The notes below the pieces were generated by a model. That model saw only the letters and a program-made list of their open reading frames with translations. It made no database searches and was not told the DNA's origin. 32,000 bases of DNA from Ignicoccus hospitalis KIN4/I (lineage in GTDB: Archaea; Thermoproteota; Thermoprotei_A; Sulfolobales; Ignicoccaceae): positions 690,001 to 722,000 of the forward strand of contig NC_009776.1 in the NCBI RefSeq assembly GCF_000017945.1, written 5' to 3'. Position numbers and translations under genes: made by a program. Every line of letters begins with the position of its first letter. The first letter of the stretch is position 1. Positions 7,167 through 30,340 of the stretch are shown piece by piece.

Positions 7167-7688
7167 GTGAGGAACGTAATAGCTCTGTTATTTGGATTGG
7201 GGCTGCTGTTAGCTGCGGGCTGCGACGACGGGAGCCCTCCTTCCCCCCAAGAGATAGTTCTAGATCATAACTTGCTCGTAGTTAAGGGCCTTACGGACCC
7301 TTGTAACGTGTCCAGAGTGGAGATAATAATTGTGAAGGATGGAACCACCACTACCTTATTGGAGACAGAACCCCTCAAGACTTCAGTCGACCTTCGAGCG
7401 ACCTTACCTCGGCCCCCCTTTACCCTCACTCTGGCCTACTCCGACGGCGCGGGCAACAACGGCACTTTGACTTGGACGGTCAGCTACTTGCCCTATACAC
7501 CCCACACATTGGAGAAGATGGTTATCACGGGAACTAAGGCGTTAGTTTTGGTGAACCCTCCTCCCGCTAGGCCCGCCTTGCCGGAGGAGTACGGCGACCC
7601 CAACTTCCAAAACGGCGCTTGGCTGTTGGTCGCCGGGGCGGCCTTTTTAGTCGGGCTCATACGGGCCTCGACTTCGAGAAGCTCATAA
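7167..7688 (+). CDS. Exported protein with a lipobox-like signal and a C-terminal hydrophobic anchor
   Basis: GTG at 7167 gives MRNVIALLFGLGLLLAAGC(19)DDGSPP. The C-terminus is GAWLLVAGAAFLVGLIRASTSRSS. The tracked ORF begins at TTG 7131. Confidence 0.6.
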   Translation: MRNVIALLFGLGLLLAAGCDDGSPPSPQEIVLDHNLLVVKGLTDPCNVSRVEIIIVKDGTTTTLLETEPLKTSVDLRATLPRPPFTLTLAYSDGAGNNGTLTWTVSYLPYTPHTLEKMVITGTKALVLVNPPPARPALPEEYGDPNFQNGAWLLVAGAAFLVGLIRASTSRSS

Positions 7689-15665: not shown

Positions 15666-16706
15666 TTATATCGCGTCCAAAAACCTCAACCTTTTGGGTA
15701 TGGGCGGATGGCTCATGAACAGCTCCACAATCGGGTTGGTCCTCTCCGCCTTTAACCTCTCAACTATGTCGTCTATGTCGTAGAACGGCTCAGCGAACGC
15801 GTATATGAACAGCATCTTGGCGGGCGAGTCCACGAAGCGGGCGACTTCCTCCTTAAGGGCTGGGTCGCTCTTCAAGCTCTCGAACGCTAAGTGTATCCTA
15901 GCCAAGGCCCTCTGCATGTTTCTCTTACCGCTTACCTTGGCCCCGTGCAAGTCTGCGTAGTACTCCCTTAACCTGTTGAATTGGAGCAGCACGAAGTTGA
16001 GAGCTATGCCTATTGCTAGAAGCGCCATCCCTACGAACATTAGCGCGCTCCCTTCGTTCCTCTCGTCCCTGCTCGTGGCGCCGGAGAAGAAGCCCCAGTC
16101 TACCAGCACCCTGCCCAAATAGTAGATCAGCATCGGCGCCAGCGACAGCGCCAGTATCAACCAAACATCTCCGTGCCTGTGGTGGCCGAGCTCGTGGCCT
16201 ATGACCGCTTCCAGCTCTTCTTCGGTGGCGACGTTTAGCATGCCCCTCGTTACAGCAACGTACTTCCCTGTCAGGAAGTTACCGTACGCAAAGGCGTTAG
16301 GGATGTTGACGTCAGCGACCAAGGCTTTGGGAGGTTTCTTGAACCCTGCCTTGGCAGCCAACGCCTTTACCATCTCCGCCAGCCTAGGCTCGACTTCCTC
16401 GGCGGGTTTGGTCCGGTACATTATGTTTATCAGCCACGGCGCTATTAGCCATTGTATCACTGCGAAGGCAGTTACAAAGAGCGCGAAGCCCATTAGCGTC
16501 GCGTTGAACCCAATCGTGCTTGCAATTAGGCTGTATCCCGAGTAGAGCAACAAGACGTACGCTAGGAGAGTAAGTCCCATGAACAGCTTCAGCCCTCTTT
16601 CACCCTTGGGGACCTTGTTGATTATCGGAGACAGCCCGACCATCAGTGCTAACACTAGAGCGGTCAGCAGAGGCTCAATGAAGAAGGACGGACCCCACAA
16701 GAACAT
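15666..16706 (-). CDS. htpX: HtpX-like M48 zinc metalloprotease
   Basis: HELGHHRHGD (HExxH) lies between transmembrane helices. The architecture is typical of HtpX, including a C-terminal SHPP motif. Confidence 0.85.
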   Translation of the reverse strand: MFLWGPSFFIEPLLTALVLALMVGLSPIINKVPKGERGLKLFMGLTLLAYVLLLYSGYSLIASTIGFNATLMGFALFVTAFAVIQWLIAPWLINIMYRTKPAEEVEPRLAEMVKALAAKAGFKKPPKALVADVNIPNAFAYGNFLTGKYVAVTRGMLNVATEEELEAVIGHELGHHRHGDVWLILALSLAPMLIYYLGRVLVDWGFFSGATSRDERNEGSALMFVGMALLAIGIALNFVLLQFNRLREYYADLHGAKVSGKRNMQRALARIHLAFESLKSDPALKEEVARFVDSPAKMLFIYAFAEPFYDIDDIVERLKAERTNPIVELFMSHPPIPKRLRFLDAI

Positions 16707-16757: not shown

Positions 16758-17801
16758 TTGCGCATAATGGGGCGGCGGCGAGGCGAATTGTTGGAATACC
16801 TCTTCGGCTTAGTGAGCATGTTGGCCGACTTCGTCTACGAAGGAGGGCGCTCCGCAATACCGGCAGAGATTAGGGACCCCGTAGAGCTGGGGATAATTTC
16901 GGGAACTTCGGAGGGCTTGGGCTACCTATTAAGAGCTTTGAGCGGAGTTATGGCAGATAAGCTAGGAGCCCATTACCTATTCATGTTTCTGGGCTACTCC
17001 CTAGTGGTGGCGTACCCTATAGCGGCGCTGATACCCTCCCTCACTACCTTCCTCGTAGCCGTTGTAGTAGAGAGAATAGGGAAGGCGATAAGGTCGCCGG
17101 CCCGCGACGCCTTAGTAGCGGCCAACGTAGAAGACCCAGGAAAGGCCTTTGCAATAATAGAAGTGATGGATCAAGCGGGGGCGGTTGCCGGTCCCCTGAC
17201 GCTGTTCTTGCTCTCTTCCTACTTCGGGTTGAGGGAGTCAATGGTGGTGTTTTTTATCCCTTATATAATAATGATACTCATACTGTTGAAGTTGAGAAAC
17301 CTCAAGGTAGTTCCTAGGAAGAAGGAGGTGGTGTGGAGCGCCGGCTCGGCAGTGGCCTTCAGCTTCTTAATAGGGGCCTCTTTCGTGCAACCCATACTCT
17401 CAGTCGCTTCGGCGCCTCAGCCCGTTTTGGGCTACGCGCTAGTGATGTTGGTAGACGCGCTGGCGAGCGTACTTATGGGAAAGTTCTTTAGGAAGTTAGT
17501 CTACTTAGCGCCCTTGCTCGCGTTGTCCTCGCTGAGCTTGAAGGATTGGCGCTTCTTACCCTTGGCGGGCGTAGCGATAGCTTACACCGAGGTCGTGGTG
17601 AGGGCGGTGATAGCGGAGGCCGGAGGGGAGGGGAGGCTTTACGGCTTGGCATACGCGGCCCTAGGCTTGGGCTACTTCGTAGGAGGCCTCGTCATGCCTT
17701 CCTTGAGCGAGGCGGAGCTAGCCGTTTACTCCCTCGCGCTCTCGGGCGCGGCTTTGGCCTTCTTACCAAAGAGGGGAGAAAGGCTCATTCCAAAATTATG
17801 A
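16758..17801 (+). CDS. MFS-like permease
   Basis: 347 aa with about 10 hydrophobic helices. The loop ERIGKAIRSPARD loosely resembles MFS motif A. Confidence 0.6.
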   Translation: MRIMGRRRGELLEYLFGLVSMLADFVYEGGRSAIPAEIRDPVELGIISGTSEGLGYLLRALSGVMADKLGAHYLFMFLGYSLVVAYPIAALIPSLTTFLVAVVVERIGKAIRSPARDALVAANVEDPGKAFAIIEVMDQAGAVAGPLTLFLLSSYFGLRESMVVFFIPYIIMILILLKLRNLKVVPRKKEVVWSAGSAVAFSFLIGASFVQPILSVASAPQPVLGYALVMLVDALASVLMGKFFRKLVYLAPLLALSSLSLKDWRFLPLAGVAIAYTEVVVRAVIAEAGGEGRLYGLAYAALGLGYFVGGLVMPSLSEAELAVYSLALSGAALAFLPKRGERLIPKL

Positions 17802-18444
17802 CGCGTTCGCCCTCCTCTAGTTTCTCCTTCGGTATTTTGCTAACAAACGTCGGATCGTCCAAGTCGCCGAAGCTCCTCGCTCCCGTGGGACAAGTCTCCA
17901 CGCAAGCCGGAAGCAACCCCTTCCTTATGCGGTGGTAACAGAGGGTGCACTTGTCCACCGCCCTACTGTATACGTCCACGCCCCTCGCCGCATATGGACA
18001 CGCAACTATGCACGCTCCGCACAAGATGCACTTGTTCTTATCGACCATGACTACCCCGTCCTTCGTAACGTAGGTGGCTCTCGTCGGGCACACGTGGGCG
18101 CACGGCGCGTCTTCGCAGTGCCTACATATCCGGTGCCAGAACTCCGCTCTAACGTTGGGGTATTTGCCCCATTCCAATCTTATCACGTTAGTCCTCGTCA
18201 TGAAAAGCTTTCCGAGGACTTCCTCTGGACTCTCTCCGCTTTCCACCCTCTTTATGGCCTCCTCCAGCGGGCTCCCTTCGTACTTGCGCAGCTTGATCAC
18301 CTTGGATAGTAGCTCCCCTATTACCCCTAGCTCCAGCGGCTTGCCCTCTTTGTACTGGTTCTCCATTACGCACGCGGCCGTACAGGCTCCGCAGCCCACG
18401 CACTTCTTGAGGTCTATTATCATAGCGGGCTTCACGGCAATCAC
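17785..18444 (-). CDS. 4x[4Fe-4S] electron-transfer subunit of the molybdopterin oxidoreductase (PsrB/DmsB-like)
   Basis: Four cluster motifs: CVGCGACTAAC, CRHCEDAPCAHVCP, CILCGACIVACP and CTLCYHR...PACVETCP. The GTG start overlaps the catalytic-subunit stop (GTGA at 18441-18444). Confidence 0.9.
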   Translation of the reverse strand: MIAVKPAMIIDLKKCVGCGACTAACVMENQYKEGKPLELGVIGELLSKVIKLRKYEGSPLEEAIKRVESGESPEEVLGKLFMTRTNVIRLEWGKYPNVRAEFWHRICRHCEDAPCAHVCPTRATYVTKDGVVMVDKNKCILCGACIVACPYAARGVDVYSRAVDKCTLCYHRIRKGLLPACVETCPTGARSFGDLDDPTFVSKIPKEKLEEGERVIILE

Positions 18445-20945
18445 CTCTTCACCTTTACTATGACGTCCGATAACAAGTGAGTGCCCGTAACCGGGTCTAT
18501 CAAGAACGGTGATTGAAGAACGTTGAACTTTAGGTCCTTGTACTTACCAAACGTCAACTTCACCTCGAACCCGTAGTTCGGCGGAACGTAGATCGCCTCT
18601 GGGACTATGCCTTCGGTCAGCTTCGCCGGCCCCCTGACGCACTCCTCGCCGGCGCACACCTCGACCACCTCGCCGTCGTTGATGCCCAACCTCTGCCCCC
18701 TAGCCTTGTTTATCCATATCTTCTTGGAATCGTCAACTATCCACGACAACAGCGGGTTAGGTTGTAGCCACGTGTAGCTCATGTTTTTCTCCTTCCCAGT
18801 CAAAAGTACGAACTCGTCAGAGGCTAAGGCCTTCCTCATCCAGATCGGGGGTACCCAGGTGGGCAGCGGGTGCCACTCGGGCTTAAGCTCACCCTTCCTC
18901 GACTTTATTATTTTCAATAGTTTGAGCGGCAAGATCTCCACCTTTCCGCTGGCCGTGTTAAGCCAGCCGTTCTCCAAGATTTTTGCGTTCATTTCCAATC
19001 CCCACGAGTCGTCCGTCAAGTACACTATTCCTTTGTTCTTCACGTCGTCGAACTTTACCCCTTGCTTCTCGCACTGCTTGCGTATTACGCTCTCGAAGTC
19101 GCCCTTCTCGAGCGCTTCCTTTACGTCACAGCCCGGACAGAGCACGTTTTCCAACTTGCTTAGGTATTTCTCGAGGAGGCCAAGCTCTCTGAAGGCGTCG
19201 GCCCATATGGTTAGCATGTCCTTGCACTCGGCCTCGACTGCGGGGAAGGCCGCCATGAACCCCTTAGCCAAGCTGAATGGGATGCCGCTGAGGACGTTGT
19301 ACCTTTCTAAGTAACCGCACTCCGGTATGAACAAGTCGCTGTAGAGCACGCTGTCGTCTTTCATTAATCCTATGTCTATTATTTTCTCGACGTTGGGGTG
19401 TTTGGCTACCTTCTGGAACGCTTGACCCATGAAGGTCCTCGCGGGGTTGCCGCCCAAGATGATGATTACGACTCCTTTGTTCTCTTCGACGAATCTGAGG
19501 AGGCCGTGGTACCCCCTGCCCCAAGGTATGAGCGGGCCTTTGGTTACGGTGCCGTCGCTGAGGGCTATCGGCGTCTCGCTCTCGTACTCGTAAAGCTTAG
19601 ACGGCTTTTCCTTCACCGGAGGGCCGGCCACCGGCGGTGCGGCCCTCTGCAACACCTTCCCTATTCCGCCCATACTGAGGACCACGCCTCCGGGCCTCAG
19701 GAAGTTGCCAGTAACGATCGAGAGGACGGCCGCGGCCCGGTACAGCTGGAAGTGGTTGAAGTACTTGTTAGCGCTCCACCCCGTCTCTACGGCGGCGGGC
19801 CTGGTCATGGCGAACTCGGCCGCAAGTTTTTCTACCACCTCCTTGGGGACGCCGCTGACCCTCTCAGCCCACTCCGGAGTGTAATCCTTGAGGTGTTCCT
19901 TGAGCGCGTTAAAGACCGTAGTGACGGGCTTGCCCTCGTACTCACCTTCGTAGGTTAGGGAGGGCAGCTTGGCTTCTCTGGAGAACTTGAAGGAGTCGGA
20001 GGCCTCGTCGAATACTAGGAAGTCAACGACCTCGAACTCCTTCATCGGGTTCTTAACAACTATGTTCTTCGTTTCCACCAGTTCCAAGGTGTCCTTGTAT
20101 ATTAGCATGGGCGCGTTGGTATATTTCTTCAAGTACGTTTCATCGTAGAGGCCTTCGTTGATTATCACGTTAAGCATGGCTAGGAAGACGGCTAAGTCAG
20201 TGCCGGGCTTCACCGGAACCCACTCGTCGGCCTTGGCCGCCCACTCGCTCAGCCTCGGGTCCATAACTACCAGCTTGTAGCTGCCCAACTTGGCGCCGGC
20301 CTTGGCCGTCTGGCCCACTGCTACCGAGCCGCCCAAGTTCCTTCCGAAGGAGAGGAAGTACTTGGTCCTCTCGTAGTCTGGGACCAAGAACGCGTGGTGG
20401 CCCGGGGCCCCGGAGAAGCCCCACGAGAGCAGCTTCGAGCCTATGCAAGTCGAGAGCGGGATGTTGATAACGTTGTCAGTGCCTATCGTCGGGGCTATGG
20501 CCATACTTATAGGGTCGTTGTACGCGGCGGCAGCAGCTTGGCCTACTACCAACACGACCTTCCAAGGGGCACCCTCTTCGAGCTTCTCCTTTATTATGCT
20601 GGCCATCTCGGCAATTGCGGTCTTGTAGTCTACTTCTTCGAAGTCCCACGACCCCCTCTCGGATCCCCGCCTCTTGAGGGGCGTCCTCAACCGGTCCGGG
20701 TTTTCGAGCTGTAGAGGCCCGGAGTTCCCCCTAGGGCACACGTGGCCTTTGTTGTGGTAGGTCGCGTAGGGGTTGCCGTAAACCCTCACGGCCTTTCCGT
20801 TTCGGACCTCTACCAGTATACTGCACGACGCCGTACACATGCGGCATATGTTCGGTACTAGCTTGACTCCGGAGGCCCTCTCCTTTTCTAGGCCTTCTAA
20901 CGGCACGTTGAACGGCTTTACCGAGAGTTTTGATAAGATCTTCAT
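18441..20945 (-). CDS. Molybdopterin (bis-MGD) oxidoreductase catalytic subunit, Psr/Phs/Ttr/Sre-like
   Basis: 834 aa. N-terminal CRMCTASCS...C Fe-S motif, a TCIG candidate Mo-ligand region, IILGGNPA, and a C-terminal barrel (INKARGQRLGINDGEVVEV). An in-frame stop lies 2 codons upstream of the ATG, so no Tat leader is possible. Confidence 0.9.
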   Translation of the reverse strand: MKILSKLSVKPFNVPLEGLEKERASGVKLVPNICRMCTASCSILVEVRNGKAVRVYGNPYATYHNKGHVCPRGNSGPLQLENPDRLRTPLKRRGSERGSWDFEEVDYKTAIAEMASIIKEKLEEGAPWKVVLVVGQAAAAAYNDPISMAIAPTIGTDNVINIPLSTCIGSKLLSWGFSGAPGHHAFLVPDYERTKYFLSFGRNLGGSVAVGQTAKAGAKLGSYKLVVMDPRLSEWAAKADEWVPVKPGTDLAVFLAMLNVIINEGLYDETYLKKYTNAPMLIYKDTLELVETKNIVVKNPMKEFEVVDFLVFDEASDSFKFSREAKLPSLTYEGEYEGKPVTTVFNALKEHLKDYTPEWAERVSGVPKEVVEKLAAEFAMTRPAAVETGWSANKYFNHFQLYRAAAVLSIVTGNFLRPGGVVLSMGGIGKVLQRAAPPVAGPPVKEKPSKLYEYESETPIALSDGTVTKGPLIPWGRGYHGLLRFVEENKGVVIIILGGNPARTFMGQAFQKVAKHPNVEKIIDIGLMKDDSVLYSDLFIPECGYLERYNVLSGIPFSLAKGFMAAFPAVEAECKDMLTIWADAFRELGLLEKYLSKLENVLCPGCDVKEALEKGDFESVIRKQCEKQGVKFDDVKNKGIVYLTDDSWGLEMNAKILENGWLNTASGKVEILPLKLLKIIKSRKGELKPEWHPLPTWVPPIWMRKALASDEFVLLTGKEKNMSYTWLQPNPLLSWIVDDSKKIWINKARGQRLGINDGEVVEVCAGEECVRGPAKLTEGIVPEAIYVPPNYGFEVKLTFGKYKDLKFNVLQSPFLIDPVTGTHLLSDVIVKVKR

Positions 20946-20951
20946 AATCTA

Positions 20952-21893
20952 TCACCCATAAATTAGGACTTTTAACAATAACAAGGCTATCCATATCAAA
21001 AACGCCGCGAGGGTAACCATGACTTCGGGGCGCTCGACGAACGCGGCCTCTTGGGAGAAGGCGTAGGAGTACGGCGGCAAGCTCAGCCTCAGCCTCTGAG
21101 GCCACTCCGCAGAGAGCGCCTTGTTCGCGAACAAGCCTATGAAGGCCAGCGCGGCCCCCGCGACGGGGTTCGCGAGAGAGACGACGGCGGCCAGCGCTAG
21201 GAGCGCGTAGTACGGCGCTACGTACTTGAGCGGCACTTCCAACCTCTCGAAGGACTTAACGAAGTAGAGTTCCCAGAAGTCGAGGAGTAGTAAGGAAATT
21301 ACGGATACCAATATAATGTCCCCCCTCGTTAACCATATACCCATCGCTAGGAATGTTGCCGCTGCGAACTCGGCGGCCTTGGCGGAGCCTTGCCACCCGG
21401 GCACCTTACTAGTCCCGAACGCCATACCGAAGTTCGTTTCCAACAAGATAGCCGAGGCTATGGCTAGGAGCGCGGCCTCCGGCGAGGGGGCGAGGAGGAG
21501 CCAGAGTATCGACAACGCTAATAGCACGTAGAATGCGACGTTCCACGCGATCCTAGAAGTCTTGTTGAAGCTCGTTAGGATGTTAATTGCCCTCTCGGGG
21601 GCGCCTAGGTCGGCGACCACCAGCGCCCACGCGGGTACCAAACTGGCCAAGGCTAGGAACGCCAACGGTTGGGGCTCAGCCCTTATCACTCCCAGCCCCG
21701 CGAGCCCCGCGGCTATCGCCGCTCCCGCGGCTAGCGTTGCGAAGAACGAATACGCGGGGACTAGGAACTTCCAAGCAATTTTCGACCTCTCTACCATTCC
21801 TTCTTCGTTTGCTAACAGTTCGCGCCAGTACTTTACGAACGCTAAGGCGCCCGCGCATGCCAGTATCAAAAAGCTCACGGCGACAATGACCAA
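20952..21893 (-). CDS. NrfD/PsrC-like membrane anchor subunit
   Basis: 313 aa with about 8 helices. ADLGAPERAINILTSFNKTSRIAWNVAFY matches the NrfD signature (DLG.PeR...S.ma). First gene of the operon. Confidence 0.8.
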   Translation of the reverse strand: MVIVAVSFLILACAGALAFVKYWRELLANEEGMVERSKIAWKFLVPAYSFFATLAAGAAIAAGLAGLGVIRAEPQPLAFLALASLVPAWALVVADLGAPERAINILTSFNKTSRIAWNVAFYVLLALSILWLLLAPSPEAALLAIASAILLETNFGMAFGTSKVPGWQGSAKAAEFAAATFLAMGIWLTRGDIILVSVISLLLLDFWELYFVKSFERLEVPLKYVAPYYALLALAAVVSLANPVAGAALAFIGLFANKALSAEWPQRLRLSLPPYSYAFSQEAAFVERPEVMVTLAAFLIWIALLLLKVLIYG

Positions 21894-23849: not shown

Positions 23850-25811
23850 CTAGCTACCATCTTTGAGCCTCCTTCTAAGCGCGACTAGGAAGACACTAGC
23901 CAACGCAACGACGGGGGTCTCGGGCTTTGTCGTACTAGACAGTATCGTAGTTGTCTCTACTAAGGTGGTTGGAACCAGCGTTACAGACGTTGTAACCACA
24001 GCGGTGTTAGTAAGAGTTACGTTCGCCGGAGGGAAGAACCCGTATATGGGTTCCCTCTCAGCGTACTTCCTCACCCTGACCCAGTCCCAGAAGTCCGATA
24101 CGTTGACCTTCTTCCTCTGTTCTACTTTAAACTTCCCACCGAAGTTGGGGCACTGCAGCGAAGTGCTGGCCAATAAGTTCCCGTTCTGATCGAAGACGTT
24201 TATTGAGAAGGTTCCGTTGAACGAGACCTTAAAGGTCAGCCACCGGTGATCGGGGAACGCGTCGAGCAGTTTGACGTCTTCCACTTGACCGTTGCATATC
24301 AACCTAGAGCTCAAGGAGGTCCCGTCCATTTCGTGTAACGAAAGCTCGTTCCCGCTCCGGTCTTCAATTACTAACGCGTTCCACTGGTCGTCCCCGCCCA
24401 TGTTCATTACCTTGGCCTCAACCAGGAACTCGCTTACCGATATCTCCTTGCTTACCATGTTCGACCAGTGGTCGCTCCCCCACACCTCTAACTGGCCGTC
24501 GTAGATCTTGTAATTGATTGGTAAGTAAGTACCGCTGCCCAGAATCCACTTGGTAGAGTTCAGCTGGGTTTCAGAGAAGTCGTCGTAGAAGTCAAACACT
24601 TGGTCCCCGCTTACAGCCCCGTTCGCGACTCTCTCAATTATTAGGTATATTCCGCTCTTGGCCGGTATCGACGGGACCCTTATCCAGACATAGCCATCGC
24701 CTTTCAATGGATCTGCTGTACACTCATCATTAGCAGTTTCGTAGCAGAAGGGGACGCTGATCCCGTTGTAGATCACCTTTAGCGGTTTGCCTTGGAGCTC
24801 AATTGGCAATTGAGCCCTTAGCTGGTACTCTGCGAGGTCGTAGTCGTTGGGGTTGAAGACGGCCAGGAGGGAGTGTGGCGAAACCATGACAACGGAAGCA
24901 ATTGGTTCCTCATCAGCGTACTTCCTCACCCTGACCCAGTCCCAATAGTCCTTATTGCTATAGCATTTCCATTGCCTTATGTAAGCTTCAGTGAAGTCAT
25001 TGCAAGTGAACACCTTACTCGCTTTCACTAAGAGGTTCCAGCTATTGTCGAATACCTCTCCCCAGTAGGAAGTGCCTTTCTTGACTATCCTCAGTATTAA
25101 CCATTGGTTCAATGGGAACCTATCCATTAGTTCCTCATAGTCATTGTCGTAATTACCTCTACAGTACACTTGCACGTACATGTCGTCACTGCCCCAGATG
25201 TTGAGTATTCCGTACCTATTCCAATCGCCGTTCGCGTCGGTTAGGTATAACGCGTGCCACTGATCGTCTTGAGCATTGAGGATCCTCGCTTCAACTACTG
25301 CGTTCTCCAAGCCTATTGGATCCTTGCTCCTAAGGATCCTCCAGTGTCCGTCCGACCAAGTAGCCAACTGACCGTTTTCGATTGAGTAGTAAATTCCGCC
25401 GTAATTAGCATCGCCTAAGACCCATTTATTAGTATCCAATTGACCCTCGTTGAAGTCGTCGTAGAAGTCGAACACTTGGTCTCCATTAACTGCTCCGTTA
25501 GTTCCGACTGCTAACTTTAGTCCAGTCTTCCCGTTGGCCGGTATGAATGGGACCTTTATCCAAATGTAACCGTCGCCCTTTGTCGAGTCAGTAGTGCACT
25601 CGTAATTGGTAGTTTCGTAGCAGAATGGAACTGGGGAGTTGTTGTAGGTTATGGCTATCTCTCTACCCTTCAACTCGTCCGGTAGCTCAACCCTTACTTG
25701 GTACTCCGTGAGGTTGTAGTCGTTCGGATTGTAAATGGTCACGTGGTAGATCCAGTTCGAAGCAGTAGCAATGGCTACTAACAGAGTAAGGATTACCGCG
25801 ACTCTCCTCAC
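23850..25811 (-). CDS. Exported surface protein with two tandem lectin-like modules (DUF2341-like plus ConA/LamG-like) and a C-terminal Thr-rich anchor
   Basis: Signal peptide MRRVAVILTLLVAIATAS. Two modules of about 290 aa each contain NPNDY..EYQ, PFCYET.N.ECT, GDGY.WI.VP, GDQVFDFYDDF...L...KW and WDWVRVRKYA. C-terminus is T-rich ...PVVALASVFLVALRRRLKDGS. GTG start with a TATA box about 40 nt upstream. Confidence 0.85.
   Translation of the reverse strand: MRRVAVILTLLVAIATASNWIYHVTIYNPNDYNLTEYQVRVELPDELKGREIAITYNNSPVPFCYETTNYECTTDSTKGDGYIWIKVPFIPANGKTGLKLAVGTNGAVNGDQVFDFYDDFNEGQLDTNKWVLGDANYGGIYYSIENGQLATWSDGHWRILRSKDPIGLENAVVEARILNAQDDQWHALYLTDANGDWNRYGILNIWGSDDMYVQVYCRGNYDNDYEELMDRFPLNQWLILRIVKKGTSYWGEVFDNSWNLLVKASKVFTCNDFTEAYIRQWKCYSNKDYWDWVRVRKYADEEPIASVVMVSPHSLLAVFNPNDYDLAEYQLRAQLPIELQGKPLKVIYNGISVPFCYETANDECTADPLKGDGYVWIRVPSIPAKSGIYLIIERVANGAVSGDQVFDFYDDFSETQLNSTKWILGSGTYLPINYKIYDGQLEVWGSDHWSNMVSKEISVSEFLVEAKVMNMGGDDQWNALVIEDRSGNELSLHEMDGTSLSSRLICNGQVEDVKLLDAFPDHRWLTFKVSFNGTFSINVFDQNGNLLASTSLQCPNFGGKFKVEQRKKVNVSDFWDWVRVRKYAEREPIYGFFPPANVTLTNTAVVTTSVTLVPTTLVETTTILSSTTKPETPVVALASVFLVALRRRLKDGS
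24027..25757 (-). repeat. Internal tandem duplication (2 x about 0.86-0.88 kb) within the 653-aa gene
   Basis: Residues 19-310 align with residues 311-595. There is an exact 32-nt identity between 24058-24089 and 24913-24944. A second near-identical patch starts at 24579 and 25455. Confidence 0.9.
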
Positions 25812-25847
25812 GGTTCACTACCGTTTTACGTGACTCGTTACAGACTC

Positions 25848-25855
25848 TATTTATA
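25848..25855 (-). promoter_or_regulatory. TATA box (TATAAATA on the minus strand) of the 653-aa gene
   Basis: tatttata on the plus strand, centred about 41 nt upstream of the GTG at 25811. Confidence 0.55.
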
Positions 25856-25861
25856 GTTAAC

Positions 25862-25906
25862 ATTGTTACGAATTGTCACCATCGTTAAGTATCGTTCTGA
25901 ATCGTT
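25862..25906. repeat. Phased hexamer array ATYGTY x5 at 10-bp spacing, immediately upstream of the TATA box
   Basis: ATTGTT at 25862, ATTGTC at 25872, and ATCGTT at 25881, 25891 and 25901. Confidence 0.7.
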
Positions 25907-26124
25907 TGCCTAGTTACTAATTATAACAAACATGCCAATAACTTTTAAGATCCAGAGAGTCAGTGGTTCGCACGGATTGCCTGCGTTTGGCGCAGAAAAT
26001 GCGAACTTTCGACCAGCTCGTTACCAATCGAGTCGGTCGCATTTGACTAAGGAGTTACCTGGATCTGACCTATAAGTTACCAAGAAATGGGCAACTTATA
26101 ATAGATATTAATTCGCAACTCGAT

Positions 26125-26265
26125 ATGGACGATACGGACGTTTTGGAGGAGCTTAAGTGGCCCTTTCAAGCTTTCTTGGTGTTGCTCTTAGACAGCTCTG
26201 ATGCACATCACTTAAGCATCAATAACTTAATCAAATTAAGGAGAAAGAACGCCCTTCCTGACTAA
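26125..26265 (+). CDS. Candidate 46-aa ORF (not in track)
   Basis: ATG 26125 is preceded by cttataata about 25 nt upstream. Translation: MDDTDVLEELKWPFQAFLVLLLDSSDAHHLSINNLIKLRRKNALPD. No motif recognised. Confidence 0.2.
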   Translation: MDDTDVLEELKWPFQAFLVLLLDSSDAHHLSINNLIKLRRKNALPD

Positions 26266-26310
26266 TTCTTGGAAGTACTCGCTATCCTTCAAGTCGTCCT
26301 TATAGAGTTC

Positions 26311-26556
26311 CTAGACCTCTCTAACGTATTTGAAGACGATCTCCTTTACTTCCCCCTCACCCCAGTCCCAAATGTCAAGTAACGTCTTCGCTAATGCCTC
26401 GGCGAAGAGCAATACTCTCTTGCGTCTCTTCTTGACTGCCGCTTGGACCATTTCGCCCCTCTGATAATTTTTGGAAGCGTGGGCAGAATAACTGAGCGAA
26501 GCTTCGGAGAGAAATTTCTGGGGGTTAACTTCACAATAATGTTTGAATAAGAACAT
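26311..26556 (-). CDS. Hypothetical small protein (81 aa)
   Basis: ATG start, with ttttaaa (minus strand) about 45 nt upstream. Basic patch KKRRKR. No family recognised. Confidence 0.35.
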   Translation of the reverse strand: MFLFKHYCEVNPQKFLSEASLSYSAHASKNYQRGEMVQAAVKKRRKRVLLFAEALAKTLLDIWDWGEGEVKEIVFKYVREV

Positions 26557-26620
26557 AGCTATTCATCGAGAACCAACTCGAAGGGTGTTAGGAAAGCGAA
26601 TGCCCGTTTAAAAAGCTAGG

Positions 26621-27616
26621 TTACTCCTTCTTCTTCCTCAACTTAGGCACCAAGAACGCAGCTGCCAGAGCGACGGCCGAAATCTCCGATGTGTTCGGCG
26701 TAGTAGTGGTTGATACTGGCTGAGGGGTATACCTCACTACTCGGTACATCTCAATCTTGCCGTTTGAATACCCAACTGCTAGCCTGTCCTTCCACCAAGC
26801 GACGTTCCAAATTCCCTCCATCCTCTTGAAGTAGACCAAGTTTCCGTTTATGTCGAATATCTTGAGCATGTTATTTCCATTATCAGCCACCGCTATGTAC
26901 TTACAGCCCGGAGAGAAGGCCGGGGTATGCTCGTTCCCACCAACGCCCAATCTACTTCTATTCCACAGCAACCTAGGATTGGCTGGATCCGAAATGTCGT
27001 AAACGTAAAGCTCCTTGGCGATTACTGCTAAGTAGTTTCTGCAAGCGTTAACGCTTCCAGATGGGTAATCATAGCCTATTTCATTGACTATTTCTCCAGT
27101 GTTCAAGTCCAGTATTTGGAGCTTTTTGCCACCTTCGTTAGCCGCGTAAACGTAGCCCTTATGGACTACTACGTCTTCAACATAATCACCAACTCCGGTG
27201 TCCCAGTACTTGTATCCGCTGAAGTCGTACTTGGCGCAATAGTAATCGCAAGCTACGAAGGCGTTACCGAAGAGGGCAATTGCTAAATCGTGACTGTCTC
27301 CAACCTCTATCTTCTTCCAGAAGGTTCCGTCCTCCTTGAAGAGGTAGACGTAGTCATCGGTATTAACGAAGCCGAACACTCTGTTGGAGTAGCCGGCCCC
27401 AGCCATAATGCCTCCTCCGCACTCCTTCCCCAACAAGTTCCCGTTGGGATCAACGATGTAGGCGCAATTGTCCCAAGAGGCTATTCCCAAGTTGCCGTTC
27501 GGTGAGAAGACCATGTCCTCAATGGCGTTGTTAGGCTCACTGAAGGTCCACAGGAGCTTCAGGTCAAGCGCGTGAAGTACGGCCAATAGCAGCAGAGCTG
27601 CTGCCAGCGCCCTCAC
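26621..27616 (-). CDS. Exported beta-propeller protein (LVIVD/PQQ-like repeats) with a C-terminal Thr-rich anchor
   Basis: Signal peptide MRALAAALLLLAVLHA. Repeated strand motifs, including ELYVYDISDPANPRLL (LVIVD-like), YVYAANEGG, IAVADNGN and KIFDINGNL. C-terminus is TTTTPNTSEISAVALAAAFLVPKLRKKKE. GTG start. Confidence 0.8.
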   Translation of the reverse strand: MRALAAALLLLAVLHALDLKLLWTFSEPNNAIEDMVFSPNGNLGIASWDNCAYIVDPNGNLLGKECGGGIMAGAGYSNRVFGFVNTDDYVYLFKEDGTFWKKIEVGDSHDLAIALFGNAFVACDYYCAKYDFSGYKYWDTGVGDYVEDVVVHKGYVYAANEGGKKLQILDLNTGEIVNEIGYDYPSGSVNACRNYLAVIAKELYVYDISDPANPRLLWNRSRLGVGGNEHTPAFSPGCKYIAVADNGNNMLKIFDINGNLVYFKRMEGIWNVAWWKDRLAVGYSNGKIEMYRVVRYTPQPVSTTTTPNTSEISAVALAAAFLVPKLRKKKE

Positions 27617-27755
27617 TTTTCTTTCTTCCTCAAGTCGGGGCTACTGATGGACTTTCTCTAATAAGTTTTTGCTATAACAGCCGAATGTTTAACGGACAGT
27701 ATAGTTTTTAAATACCCTCAATACAGTCTAAAATGTCCTAAATTTAGCTTTAGCG

Positions 27756-28067
27756 CTAGGTACGAGGGGCCTGTAAACCAATAGAAGCGTTCCACATCGG
27801 CTCAAGCCCTATCTTCTTTAAGTTCTCGCTGTTGGTTACACAGTACTTCATGGGGGTTTCGTCATTAGAGTATGGCCGGAATGTGTTATCTGTCCCCCAG
27901 ATCTTGAACTGTGGTACTACGCTGCTTATTTCTTTCCAAGTTATAGTTCCGTTGTCCGCACACGCTCCTAGTTGGTTGAGTGCGTCAACGAACGCGGTTG
28001 GCGCTATTCCGTTCATATCACACTTGAAGTAATCAGGGTTATAGAGCACTCCCGTATCTAACAGCAC
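27756..28067 (-). CDS. Orphan ORF or possible gene remnant (103 aa)
   Basis: GTG start, no signal peptide, no motif. A TATA-like ctataaa (minus strand) lies about 65 nt upstream. Flanked by a 10-bp inverted repeat and an 11-bp direct repeat. Confidence 0.3.
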   Translation of the reverse strand: MLLDTGVLYNPDYFKCDMNGIAPTAFVDALNQLGACADNGTITWKEISSVVPQFKIWGTDNTFRPYSNDETPMKYCVTNSENLKKIGLEPMWNASIGLQAPRT

Positions 28068-28412
28068 TATGCCTACGTCTTGCGGAGCTACGACGGCGTT
28101 CTAGGGAGTAGGGTCGGTGATGGCAGTTAGTTTATAGCGTTAATTAGGTTTAGCTTTAGATCCAAGGACATTTTTGCTCGATTAGAACTGCTCGAAAGCT
28201 ACTAACTTTGTGAATATTAATACAATACAACATGGATTGCGAAGATCAGTACAGTTAGGTGATAGAAACTGGAAAGCTTGGGCTTTTCTGTTTGGGTGTA
28301 CAGTCTTTAGTACCGATATATTTTATGGAATTTTTCTATCTGGAATCATTACTGATATCGCAAAAGCCAAGGTTTAGAAAATCGAAAACCGAGATTAGGT
28401 CGTTACTGCACA

Positions 28413-29333
28413 ATGGCTTATATATTAGCTAGAGAATGCACCGGGCTGAGGGAAGTGAGGATGAGGTCGTGGCTAGTGTTGTCAGCGATGATTGCCCTCG
28501 CAACTGCTCGGGTTTACATAGTGTTCCCAGTGACAACAACCACCGTTAGTTATACGATGTTGCAACCTAATAATACTATGATAGCGTTCGAGGGTGACTG
28601 CTTCCCTTATGGTTTCACGGCAACTCTGATCTACAGATCCAACATAAGTGCGACTACTACCACGGTGGACGCGGGTACCGTTTACACGGCTGGTACATTA
28701 CTACAACCAGAGATTCAGAACGTTGTAACGTTAACCCAATTACCGAATGCCATAGAGAATGGGATAGTTAAGGTCTTCTGTGTTAATGCGCGGCAAAGAG
28801 TATATGCTATCTCCAGTACAGTCCAAACCATAAGCGTGTCAGGCGTTGTTACCAATACCATCAGTTACGTAACGACCAAAACGTATATGATACCTACTGT
28901 TGCATCAGAGGTGTACCCTCCCGGAATAACAGCCTATAAAACCACCTATGCCACAACTTCAGCTCACTTCATCACTACCACTAAGGTTACCTTTACAACC
29001 AGCGGTGCTATTGAAACTACAATAACTCTCAGTAATCTCATAACAGAAAATCCCCTAAGAGGGTTAGAGATGCCCGCCAATCCGATTTCTGCAGTGATAA
29101 CTACCCCATCCACAGTACTAACCGCTGTACATGATGTCCTTGAAATGTTGATACCAGTGACAGTGAGCGCAATAGCTGAAGGGAGTAAACCCATGACTAC
29201 AAATGCCGCCGACACAGCGACCACCACAGTTACAGGTAGCATTCCCGCGCCAATACTGCTAGCCTTTGCTTCAGCAATACTAACTAAGAGATTTAAAAAA
29301 TCTTCAAAAAAGGTTGTCGTTACTGCCAAGTAG
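28413..29333 (+). CDS. Exported Thr/Val-rich surface protein with a C-terminal anchor
   Basis: The internal ATG at 28461 gives the signal peptide MRSWLVLSAMIALATA. The body is rich in T/V/I beta-strand-like segments and N-x-S/T sequons. C-terminus is TATTTVTGSIPAPILLAFASAILTKRFKKSSKK. Confidence 0.75.
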   Translation: MAYILARECTGLREVRMRSWLVLSAMIALATARVYIVFPVTTTTVSYTMLQPNNTMIAFEGDCFPYGFTATLIYRSNISATTTTVDAGTVYTAGTLLQPEIQNVVTLTQLPNAIENGIVKVFCVNARQRVYAISSTVQTISVSGVVTNTISYVTTKTYMIPTVASEVYPPGITAYKTTYATTSAHFITTTKVTFTTSGAIETTITLSNLITENPLRGLEMPANPISAVITTPSTVLTAVHDVLEMLIPVTVSAIAEGSKPMTTNAADTATTTVTGSIPAPILLAFASAILTKRFKKSSKKVVVTAK

Positions 29334-29664
29334 GCAAATGCCGCCAACTAATCGTTTTTAATTTCTTTCCTTTCGTAAGGAAGTTCTGCATGAAAGAGGT
29401 GTGATGGCATACGGAACATCTGAAATATTAGATAGGCAATACAATAATATACGATATAACGATTGTGATCGCTGTAATTTAGAGAATCGCGATACTCTGG
29501 TTATTACCCCAACTTAGTACTTTAGAGCACATTATAATTTGCGGTCTAGACATACAAACGCAGAAGACCGATATGAAGTTTAACATGATATCAAACTAAT
29601 TCCCAACGCCGAAATTTATATGTAGAGATACGATACTAGATAATGTTCGCTCGAGGAAGGAGAG

Positions 29665-30121
29665 ATGAGAGTATTGGCAACAACTCTGCTGCTAGCTCAC
29701 CTACACCGACACCGTCACTAGGTGGATCGTTTATACAACGACGTACACCACCACTAAGACTTTGGGACCCAAAACCGTGACCGAAGTTTACACGACCACC
29801 TACACTACCACTAAGGTACTCGAGAGGCATCCTATAACAGAGACCGTCACAGAGGTCATAACTAAGCCCATAACTTCCGTAGTGACGTCGGTAGAGACAG
29901 TCACTGAGACTATCACTAGAACGCTCCTAACGGCCACCACGCTCTCGACGACCATACTCCTCACTACGACTAACTTGACCCTTACGAGCGTTACGACCAC
30001 CACCGTGGTGTCTCAAGTTACTAACGTGTACATACCGACGGTAGCGCTGCTCGGCGCCCTCATAGCGGCCAAGCTCGGGATTAGGAGGGAGGGGAGGGTT
30101 TGGGAGTTTTTAAAACAGTAG
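29665..30121 (+). pseudogene. Thr-rich anchored surface protein whose signal peptide and body are in different frames (+1 shift near 29693-29700)
   Basis: ATG 29665, preceded by gaggaaggagag and tttatat, encodes MRVLATTLLLAHLHRHRH-stop in frame 1. Frame 2 is open from 29696 (LTYTDTVTRWIVYTTTYTTTKTLGPK...), which is upstream of the tracked TTG at 29762, and it ends in TVALLGALIAAKLGIRREG. Confidence 0.65.
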
Positions 30122-30340
30122 GTTTCGCGTAGTCGAAACTTATGCATAGTGAGGCTACGTCACCACCTAAATCCCTCGCTTGGCCTTAACGTTCCTCTAT
30201 AAGCCCGCCCGAGTTCCCACTTGGCCCTTCCTCCATACAGCTTATATAAAGATGAGCGTTGAGTAACGCTAAGGCGATCTTGATCTATGTATGAAGGCTT
30301 ACGAGGTTATTTTAGGTGGTTTTTTCAGGGCTAGGGTCAG

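Follow-up and report, generated by a model that had tools for sequence, protein, structure and literature searches.

The stretch analyzed here, hereafter the window, comprises 32,000 nucleotides of the chromosome of the archaeon Ignicoccus hospitalis KIN4/I (NC_009776.1, positions 690,001–722,000 of the forward strand); all coordinates below are those of the window. Four proteins encoded between 23850 and 30121, in an island of low guanine-cytosine (GC) content, share, as read from their sequences, a position-specific and strictly C-terminal module. This is concluded from profile scores, segment shuffles, and the location of the matches at the ends of open reading frames (ORFs). The proteins are designated P1 to P4 and correspond to Igni/Iho_0806, 0808, 0810, and 0811; a fifth protein, P5 (Igni_0785), is encoded in the core region. 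The module has four parts: a Thr-rich stalk, probably glycosylated and extended, a juxtamembrane element [IVT]-P-x-[PV]-A-L-L, about 10 more hydrophobic residues, and an Arg/Lys cluster. It is interpreted, with a probability of roughly 55%, as a lineage-specific variant of the crenarchaeal Ser/Thr-rich stalk with a retained C-terminal membrane anchor. The ectodomains that carry it are unrelated, being a tandem lectin/glucanase fold, a beta-propeller, and two Thr-rich proteins. Locus tags were assigned from gene size and order against Table S1 of the I. hospitalis proteome paper (PMC3149612), with a 219-amino-acid (aa) Fe-S protein (Iho_0801) and an 834-aa molybdopterin oxidoreductase (Iho_0802) as anchors.

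Tail profile and the conserved element

Of 145 representatives of the P2 family, 28 end in a hydrophobic stretch and a basic cluster. A profile was trained on these 28 tails, all from other organisms, with the window's own sequence excluded. Aligned on the basic cluster, the tails showed a recurrent element directly before the hydrophobic core (for example, GIPAPALLAPLLGGLF-RRTKKK, GVPAPILLSLFGGIIL-RRRKG, KIPAPVLLVPITIAL-RRIRK, and GIPSVALIGGLASIAS-RKLLKRR). The profile consensus was T-T-x-T-[GK]-[IV]-P-A-[PV]-A-L-L-[AS]-L-L-x-x-A-L-R-[RK]-[RK]-R-[KR], with R/K at profile positions 21–25 and emission probabilities of 0.63 for I/V, 0.57 for P, 0.65 for P/V, 0.60 and 0.62 for the two L, and 0.70 for A/S. 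The conserved element, [IVT]-P-x-[PV]-A-L-L, is located on the outer margin of the hydrophobic stretch and became visible only through the homologues in other organisms.

In 21 of the 28 tails, the pattern [IVLT]-P-x-[PVLI] began 12–17 residues ahead of the basic cluster, compared with 3 of 36 internal controls, which were hydrophobic and basic sites within proteins from the same loci (Fisher p = 4e-8). The tetrapeptide [IV]PAP was present in 8/28 family tails and was seen once in 72,562 non-tail positions. P-A-P shows no variation only within a canonical subset that was picked by hand, and P3 alone is canonical in the window. The spacing between the motif and the basic cluster was 14–15 residues in 18 of 24 tails, the hydrophobic run after the second Pro was only 10–11 residues long (often with a further Pro or Gly), and the 30 aa upstream of the family tails contained 19.5% Thr and 10.8% Ser.

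On this profile, P1 scored 24.8 bits, P3 18.2, P4 17.1, P2 14.5, and P5 0.8. The 36 internal sites reached at most 6.2 bits, the 99th percentile of composition-shuffled tails was 12.4 bits, and the C-terminal anchors of DUF2341 homologues from distant lineages scored 7.8 bits or less. The tails were additionally subjected to segment shuffles, in which residues were permuted only inside the linker and inside the hydrophobic block, so that the polar-hydrophobic-basic layout was kept. P1 and P4 exceeded all 1000 of these shuffles and P3 had p = 0.001; for P2 (p = 0.10) and P5 (p = 0.76) the score was not significant by itself. The register of the four island tails is TP-V-V-A-L-A in P1, IS-A-V-A-L-A in P2, IP-A-P-I-L-L in P3, and IP-T-V-A-L-L in P4. 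The profile was also run over 1,236 six-frame ORFs (159,467 aa) from 233 kb of sequence, i.e., the window, I. pacificus, and loci from Desulfurococcales metagenome-assembled genomes (MAGs) and vent metagenomes. The 12 best matches all ended 13 aa or less from the stop, and the best internal match scored 6.4 bits.

An earlier note on this DNA had described tripartite C-termini (a Thr-rich linker, a short hydrophobic segment, and a basic tail) in the four island proteins, had added the C-terminus of P5 to them, and had proposed a candidate sorting or anchoring motif. The five quoted C-termini were located at the ends of ORFs 23850–25811 (−), 26621–27616 (−), 28413/28461–29333 (+), 29762–30121 (+), and 7131/7167–7688 (+); the sequences given for P3 and P4 were accurate, but both ORFs go on beyond the quoted end, by 6 aa (VVVTAK) and 8 aa (RVWEFLKQ), respectively. 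The tripartite layout itself is real, as a hydrophobic block of 13–17 aa followed by a K/R cluster was present in all five proteins. The Thr-rich linker was confined to the four island proteins, with 21–43% Thr in the 30 aa upstream of their tails, and the basic ends of these four are RRRLK, KLRKKK, KRFKKSSKK, and RRE.

A shared tail on unrelated exported proteins was thus borne out, but the conserved element differs from the one named at first. A-x-x-[AV]-F-L-V, said to be common to three of the five tails, matched literally in P5 only; P1 and P2 read A-x-[AV]-F-L-V, with one residue fewer between A and [AV], and [AV]FLV is found in three tails. Some tripeptide was common to at least three of the five tails in 31% of within-tail shuffles; when five real hydrophobic segments of the window were drawn at random instead, the figure was 32%. 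With one literal match, 31–32% in the controls, and loss in the P5 orthologue, that motif was set aside as chance. The note had also stated that conservation of nothing but generic hydrophobicity would speak against a signal; in the four island proteins, positional information beyond hydrophobicity was found.

Carriers of the tail and their relatives

P1 (23850..25811, −; 653-aa ORF) has a signal peptide at residues 1–17, followed by two repeats of DUF2341 with a concanavalin-like lectin/glucanase fold (PF10102 matched twice, E = 2.3e-31), the linker, and the tail. Its AlphaFold2 (AF2) model shows a helix at residues 2–17, beta domains at 21–593, disorder at 595–632, and a terminal helix at 633–650, which takes in basic residues. 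The two beta-sandwich units resemble GH16 glucanases and L-type lectins (Foldseek on the AlphaFold model). The Thr-rich linker (residues 597–631, NVTLTNTAVVTTSVTLVPTTLVETTTILSSTTKPE; 23919..24023, −) has 37% Thr in its last 30 aa and a predicted local distance difference test (pLDDT) score below 50. The tail (23853..23918, −) reads TPVV-ALASVFLVAL (residues 632–645) and then RRRLKDGS; at 24.8 bits, its score was reached by 0/1000 segment shuffles.

In P2 (26621..27616, −; 331 aa), a signal peptide precedes a beta-propeller ('WD40 repeats', arCOG2491), which is followed by a short Thr-rich linker and the tail. The Pfam propeller matches were weak, and 614 homologues were retrieved at E ≤ 1e-3. 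The tail (26624..26683, −), ISAV-ALAAAFLVP and then KLRKKKE, is degenerate, with Ser where the motif has Pro; homologous tails are found in the P2 family. It scored 14.5 bits, but with a segment-shuffle p of 0.10 it is not significant alone. The Iho_0808 row of Table S1 gives a signal peptide (SigP yes) and no transmembrane domain (TMD) call (PMC3149612), i.e., the 13-aa hydrophobic tail of P2 was not taken as a membrane helix by a standard predictor.

P3 (28461..29333, +) is annotated from 28413 as 306 aa and is 290 aa long from Met 28461, the start called in a MAG, which yields a signal peptide. It contains 19% Thr. Among 5.8 billion proteins, no homologue other than P3 itself was found, and it is regarded as an orphan. 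Its tail (29241..29330, +), (TGS)-IPAP-ILLAFASAILT-KRFKKSSKKVVVTAK, has the canonical form (18.2 bits, segment-shuffle p = 0.001).

P4 (29665..30121, +; 33% Thr) is annotated as 114 aa, with the listed ORF at 29762–30121. Its own frame is open only from 29696 and has no signal peptide. A signal-like ORF (MRVLATTLLLAHLHRHRH, then a stop; ATG at 29665, span 29665–29721) is located upstream in a different frame, and P4 is therefore taken to be frameshifted or decaying, frameshifting being the probable case. In this region (29665–29830), the main frame begins with the unit VYTTTYTTTK[TV]L, repeated twice. The P4 sequence was identical in one metagenome contig and one MAG. The tail (30032..30118, +), IPTV-ALLGALIAAKLGI-RREGRVWEFLKQ, scored 17.1 bits, which was reached by 0/1000 segment shuffles.

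The signal peptides of P1, P2, and P3 have n-h-c regions ending in A-T-A or L-H-A, as read from the sequence; published SigP calls are 'Yes' for Iho_0806, Iho_0808, and Iho_0785 (PMC3149612). In unfiltered BLASTP comparisons, the similarity between P1 and P2 was limited to residues 624–651 and 301–331, respectively, and the P1–P4 and P3–P4 pairs matched in the Thr-rich linker and tail only. No DNA similarity was found among the tail-coding segments.

The module was also detected on other proteins. A DUF2341 protein of a MAG (P0020) ends in GVPIPAPVLLAPVAAFLARKRKR (21.2 bits), and a secreted I. pacificus protein of unrelated sequence carries a weaker form (YTPLIALLALLMIPLIEKVRRK, p = 0.02). On the vent metagenome contig L020 (504–2272), a propeller gene is adjoined by a secreted ORF of 200 aa whose tail contains GGIPAP (GGIPAPLLLALGGALLAGKLGKRK). 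The homology of P3 to this ORF consisted of a single TTTTVDAG stretch (E = 0.028) and was not relied on. Another vent metagenome contig, L019 (1–4379), has two adjacent propeller genes with tails on both. The carriers found to date belong to Ignicoccus or close relatives: the genome matches were I. pacificus and Desulfurococcales MAGs, and HisF on one carrier contig is 79% identical to that of the window. A metagenome scan with the propeller alignment gave seven loci, none with the tail.

Homologues with other C-termini were observed as well. P1-like DUF2341/lectin-fold and P2-like propeller domains, encoded by separate neighbouring genes in the window (23850–27616), are fused in I. islandicus EYM_02635 (P0004, 863 aa) and I. 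pacificus IPA_07620 (P0010, 948 aa), and both fusions lack the tail. This Rosetta-stone arrangement in two other Ignicoccus species suggests that P1 and P2 work together. In place of the tail, at least eight DUF2341 and propeller homologues have a conserved helical module at the C-terminus, about 220 aa long, for which no Pfam name was seen (P0002, P0008, P0012, P0027, P0135, P0146, and P0169, compared with the last 260 aa of P0004); it may serve attachment or oligomerisation in a different way. In P0037, a homologue of euryarchaeal type, the C-terminus is a PGF-like tail. In I. pacificus, a 1108-aa Thr-rich exported protein (L009, 5565–8891, −) has a different tail, PPGGSGFEGIAGLIMLAYAIARMMERL, which looks PGF-like by eye; this assignment was dropped, as no curated model matched at cutoff and the best was Heimdall-CTERM with 11.6 bits.

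P5 (Igni/Iho_0785; 7167..7688, +, in an ORF spanning 7131/7167–7688) is a 173-aa exported protein with a C-terminal anchor, AWLLVAGAAFLVGLI-RASTSRSS, and a linker that is Pro-rich rather than Thr-rich. It had been grouped with the island four, and its profile score of 0.8 bits and segment-shuffle p of 0.76 did not uphold this; P5 has a plain, generic anchor and lies outside the shared module. Its one orthologue found, P0075, is 51% identical and has kept the anchor but not its sequence, with AWMIMALLGLSLGAI where P5 has AWLLVAGAAFLVGLI. The signal peptide of P5 (7167–7230) ends in a lipobox-like LLAAG-C, and the Cys is kept in P0075 (SGAQT-C). Crenarchaeota are generally said to be without lipoproteins.

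Comparison with known anchors and sorting signals

A Ser/Thr-rich glycosylated linker followed by a C-terminal transmembrane segment has been described for binding proteins of Sulfolobus and Aeropyrum and for S-layer stalks (PMC3387779). In the S. solfataricus amylase AmyA, a C-terminal hydrophobic stretch and charged residues are needed for membrane association, and a hydrophobic and charged C-terminal motif was noted to be widespread among the proteins that related Crenarchaeota secrete (PMC5023256). The island module agrees with AmyA, the oligopeptide-binding proteins, and SlaB-type stalks in all features of crenarchaeal C-terminally anchored secreted proteins, i.e., a Sec signal, a Ser/Thr-rich stalk, a hydrophobic stretch, and a charged end, and like them it is shared, within a single lineage, by numerous secreted proteins that are otherwise unrelated. 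It differs from them in three respects. The hydrophobic stretch of AmyA is 18 residues long, compared with 13–17 here (10–11 after the Pro motif). The crenarchaeal anchors are described as compositional, whereas here a position-specific [IVT]-P-x-[PV]-A-L-L is placed at a fixed distance from the basic cluster. Ignicoccus, unlike the hosts of the compared anchors, has two membranes and no S-layer. The tail had been called undescribed, which holds insofar as no curated sorting-domain model matched it, but its general architecture was already known in Crenarchaeota (PMC3387779, PMC5023256). The four island proteins share a position-specific conserved module that no curated Pfam or NCBIfam model matches.

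As a retained anchor, the tail would work as follows. The N-terminal signal peptide would send the chain through Sec, and the C-terminal hydrophobic stretch would act as a stop-transfer helix, its outer end capped by the prolines, while the basic cluster would remain cytoplasmic in line with the positive-inside rule. On its stalk, the ectodomain (lectin-fold or propeller) would be held outside the cytoplasmic membrane, on the side that in Ignicoccus borders the intermembrane compartment. Export, glycosylation, topology, and retention of the tail on the mature protein are all predictions of this reading.

Several observations weigh against a plain anchor. Such an anchor does not require that unrelated proteins keep a conserved motif at constant spacing from the basic cluster, and the 10–11 hydrophobic residues after the second Pro, often with an additional Pro or Gly, are short for a stable transmembrane helix. 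Further, the TMD predictor behind the published annotation made no call on the P2 tail, and the module displays most attributes of cleaved sorting signals as formulated by Haft. These attributes of tripartite C-terminal sorting domains (bioRxiv 10.1101/2023.06.07.544157) were compared with the module one by one. C-terminal location, multiplicity (four occurrences within 23850–30121, 6.3 kb), a basic cluster, unrelated carriers, and homologues without the tail or with another one were all observed. A signal peptide is present in P1–P3, and in P4 only through the frameshift. Where three nearly invariant signature residues are expected, the profile probabilities were 0.57–0.65, and P2 has Ser for Pro. 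The region expected to form a membrane helix is hydrophobic, although only 13–17 aa long, with an AF2 helix in P1 and no TMD call in P2.

The tail may alternatively be a true C-terminal sorting signal, analogous to PGF-CTERM/ArtA, PEP-CTERM/exosortase, or CGP-CTERM/archaeomyxosortase, a possibility that is considered less likely but a serious rival. After Sec export, the short hydrophobic stretch and the basic cluster would hold the precursor in the membrane, and a putative intramembrane enzyme would read [IV]-P-A-[PV], remove the helix, and perhaps add a lipid or hand the protein over, e.g., towards the Ignicoccus outer membrane. Consistent with such processing, attributes 1, 2, 5, 7, and 8 of the Haft list apply to the module and attribute 6 to three of the four proteins; the motif directly adjoins the hydrophobic segment and follows a Thr/Ser-rich region, as in CGP-CTERM; the hydrophobic core is short and contains Pro/Gly; and the spacing from motif to basic cluster is fixed, at 14–15 residues in 18/24 tails. 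The signature, on the other hand, is far from invariant (P 0.57, [PV] 0.65, L 0.60–0.62), and of the four island tails only P3 is canonical, with no Pro at all in the motif of P2. The training tails came mostly from one protein family, so that shared descent adds to the signal. The anchor of Igni_0785 is equally short (15 aa) and has no motif, which indicates that shortness is not specific to the module.

Curated models for C-terminal sorting domains were also applied. Whole-protein scans with the NCBIfam CTERM models proved unreliable for such short domains, as the HMMER filters missed the PGF-like tail of the long P0037 protein, and isolated tails were therefore rescanned with positive controls. 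The isolated control tails scored 50.3 bits (PGF-CTERM), 36.9 bits (PEP-CTERM), and 36.4 bits (CGP-CTERM). No C-terminal sorting model of Pfam or NCBIfam (release 20) reached its cutoff on the window tails or on the canonical tails of relatives, and the tails do not belong to the PGF-, PEP-, CGP-, or PGAP-CTERM families. PGF-CTERM (TIGR04126, cutoff 24.5 bits) gave no match on the window tails, which have no P-G-F signature, and its sole match among the relatives' canonical tails was 9.2 bits. PEP-CTERM (TIGR02595, cutoff 16 bits, P-E-P signature) matched none of the tails, and the Pfam PEP-CTERM and LPXTG models stayed below threshold on them. CGP-CTERM (TIGR04288, cutoff 21 bits) gave no match, and none of the four tails contains Cys. 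PGAP-CTERM (NF050189) was the best-scoring curated model on the P3 tail, yet remained below cutoff (15.5 bits against 25), with positions 11–27 of 28 aligned and the first ten model positions unaligned. A MYXO-type model scored 15.0 bits against a cutoff of 15.85, in an alignment that begins downstream of the model's first positions.

Among sorting signals, CGP-CTERM of Thermococcales is the closest architectural analogue. Like the island module, CGP-CTERM/archaeomyxosortase (MrtA) is a system of hyperthermophilic archaea with a compact tripartite tail of about 20 aa, a spacerless motif, and a Thr/Ser-rich upstream region (CGP-CTERM is described as 20 aa long, with 26% Thr and 15% Ser upstream). 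The invariant Cys of CGP-CTERM is absent here, and no CPBP-family enzyme was identified in the loci scanned. With PGF-CTERM/archaeosortase A and PEP-CTERM/exosortase, the module has in common the tripartite layout, the Thr/Ser-rich upstream region, and a Pro motif at the outer membrane edge, but its hydrophobic core is shorter, its signature residues are much less invariant, and the respective models scored below cutoff. By eye and from the family names, [VI]-P-x-P looks like the VPEP and VPLPA-type motifs of exosortase substrates.

No candidate enzyme was found beside the tail genes in the window and the related loci examined. The earlier note had reported no processing enzyme in the window, and accordingly no sortase, exosortase, rhomboid, or CPBP family was among the Pfam/NCBIfam matches there; the sole membrane protease is an M48 (HtpX/Ste24-type) peptidase at 15666–16706, with no link to the tails. 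Sorting-enzyme families were likewise absent from 104 kb of I. pacificus and from the MAG and metagenome loci (approximately 200 kb of related loci). The multi-pass membrane ORFs checked in all loci were transporters, cytochrome b, and similar proteins, apart from two that had no family match, and no sorting enzyme was recognised among them. In addition, Crenarchaeota have been reported to be without archaeosortases, their homologues, and their target motifs (PMC3387779).

The island and the meaning of the tail

GC content in the island, at approximately 25–30 kb, was 0.44–0.48, compared with 0.52–0.59 in the core region (1–23 kb); the whole chromosome of I. hospitalis KIN4/I has 1,297,538 bp and 56.5% GC (PMC2614490). 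Intergenic gaps in the low-GC island (23850–30200) are unusually long for a 1.3-Mb genome. Besides the tail genes, among them the orphan P3, the island holds two small hypothetical ORFs, both with neither signal nor tail: Iho_0807 (26311..26556, −; 81 aa) and Iho_0809 (27756..28067, −; 103 aa). In the proteome paper, Iho0806–0811 are placed among 'clusters of unexpressed genes'; Iho_0806 alone in the cluster was detected, in pure culture (11 spectra) but not in co-culture, and Iho_0808, Iho_0810, and Iho_0811 were undetected (PMC3149612). Further silent clusters listed there are Iho0262–0264, 0432–0437, 0893–0896, 1023–1026, and 1312–1316 (PMC3149612). The few spectra, the frameshift in P4, the low GC, and the long intergenic gaps together suggest a silent or condition-specific, partly decaying island of surface-protein genes.

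From these data it could be argued that the island is a decaying or silent remnant, its tails inherited from formerly functional surface proteins via shuffling of an anchor cassette across Thr-rich low-complexity DNA and with no present function in I. hospitalis. The unexpressed status of Iho0806–0811 (apart from the 11 spectra of Iho_0806), the frameshifted P4 with its low-GC, gap-rich surroundings, and the orphan status of P3, for which no homologue was found, would fit such a history. However, the ORFs of P1, P2, and P3 are intact and have signal peptides, membrane proteins are under-detected by shotgun proteomics, and the dissimilarity of the tail-coding DNA segments indicates that the module is old and still conserved. 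The remnant explanation is held to be improbable, and it is silent on the role of the module where it is expressed. That there is no shared element, only a generic polar linker, a hydrophobic helix, and positive-inside residues with motifs drawn post hoc, would account for the AFLV motif named at first, for the p of 0.10 of the P2 tail, and for the generic behaviour of P5, but is very improbable, because P1, P3, and P4 each beat at least 999 of 1000 layout-keeping shuffles on a profile trained solely on other organisms, with distant DUF2341 anchors at 7.8 bits or less and internal sites at 6.4 or less.

Other genes of the window were noted in passing. A MAG, ENA metagenome contigs, and Logan assemblies of sequencing runs also contained core genes of the window, at 99.98–100% identity. 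A sulfur/polysulfide reductase cluster, SreB-SreA-SreC (Igni_0801–0803), is located at 17785–21893; of all I. hospitalis proteins, Iho_0801 and Iho_0802 were reported to show the strongest enrichment in purified Nanoarchaeum equitans (PMC3149612). A GT4-family glycosyltransferase (AglH-like, first step of N-glycosylation) is encoded at 903–1907, with no link to the tails.

Ignicoccus has two membranes and no S-layer and is the host of Nanoarchaeum, and the question of how it retains or routes the proteins that it exports has yet to be answered (PMC3387779). Crenarchaeota are generally held to depend on plain C-terminal anchors and to have no sorting of the archaeosortase type. It is doubtful, but conceivable, that the [IV]-P-A-[PV]-A-L-L tail is the first dedicated C-terminal sorting signal of the Crenarchaeota/Thermoproteota. 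A putative intramembrane enzyme would then recognise it, cut off the short helix, and give glycosylated surface proteins a new anchor or destination, possibly the outer cellular membrane, which only the Ignicoccus lineage has; on present sampling, the tail is restricted to Ignicoccus and close relatives. If the tail is only an anchor, as the favoured reading has it, the finding would refine existing knowledge modestly, by a lineage-specific form of a known architecture in a silent island. The conserved tail on unrelated lectin-fold, propeller, and Thr-rich proteins offers a marker with which the anchored surface proteome of the lineage can be searched, and its profile is a defined query for phylogenetic profiling toward a partner enzyme.

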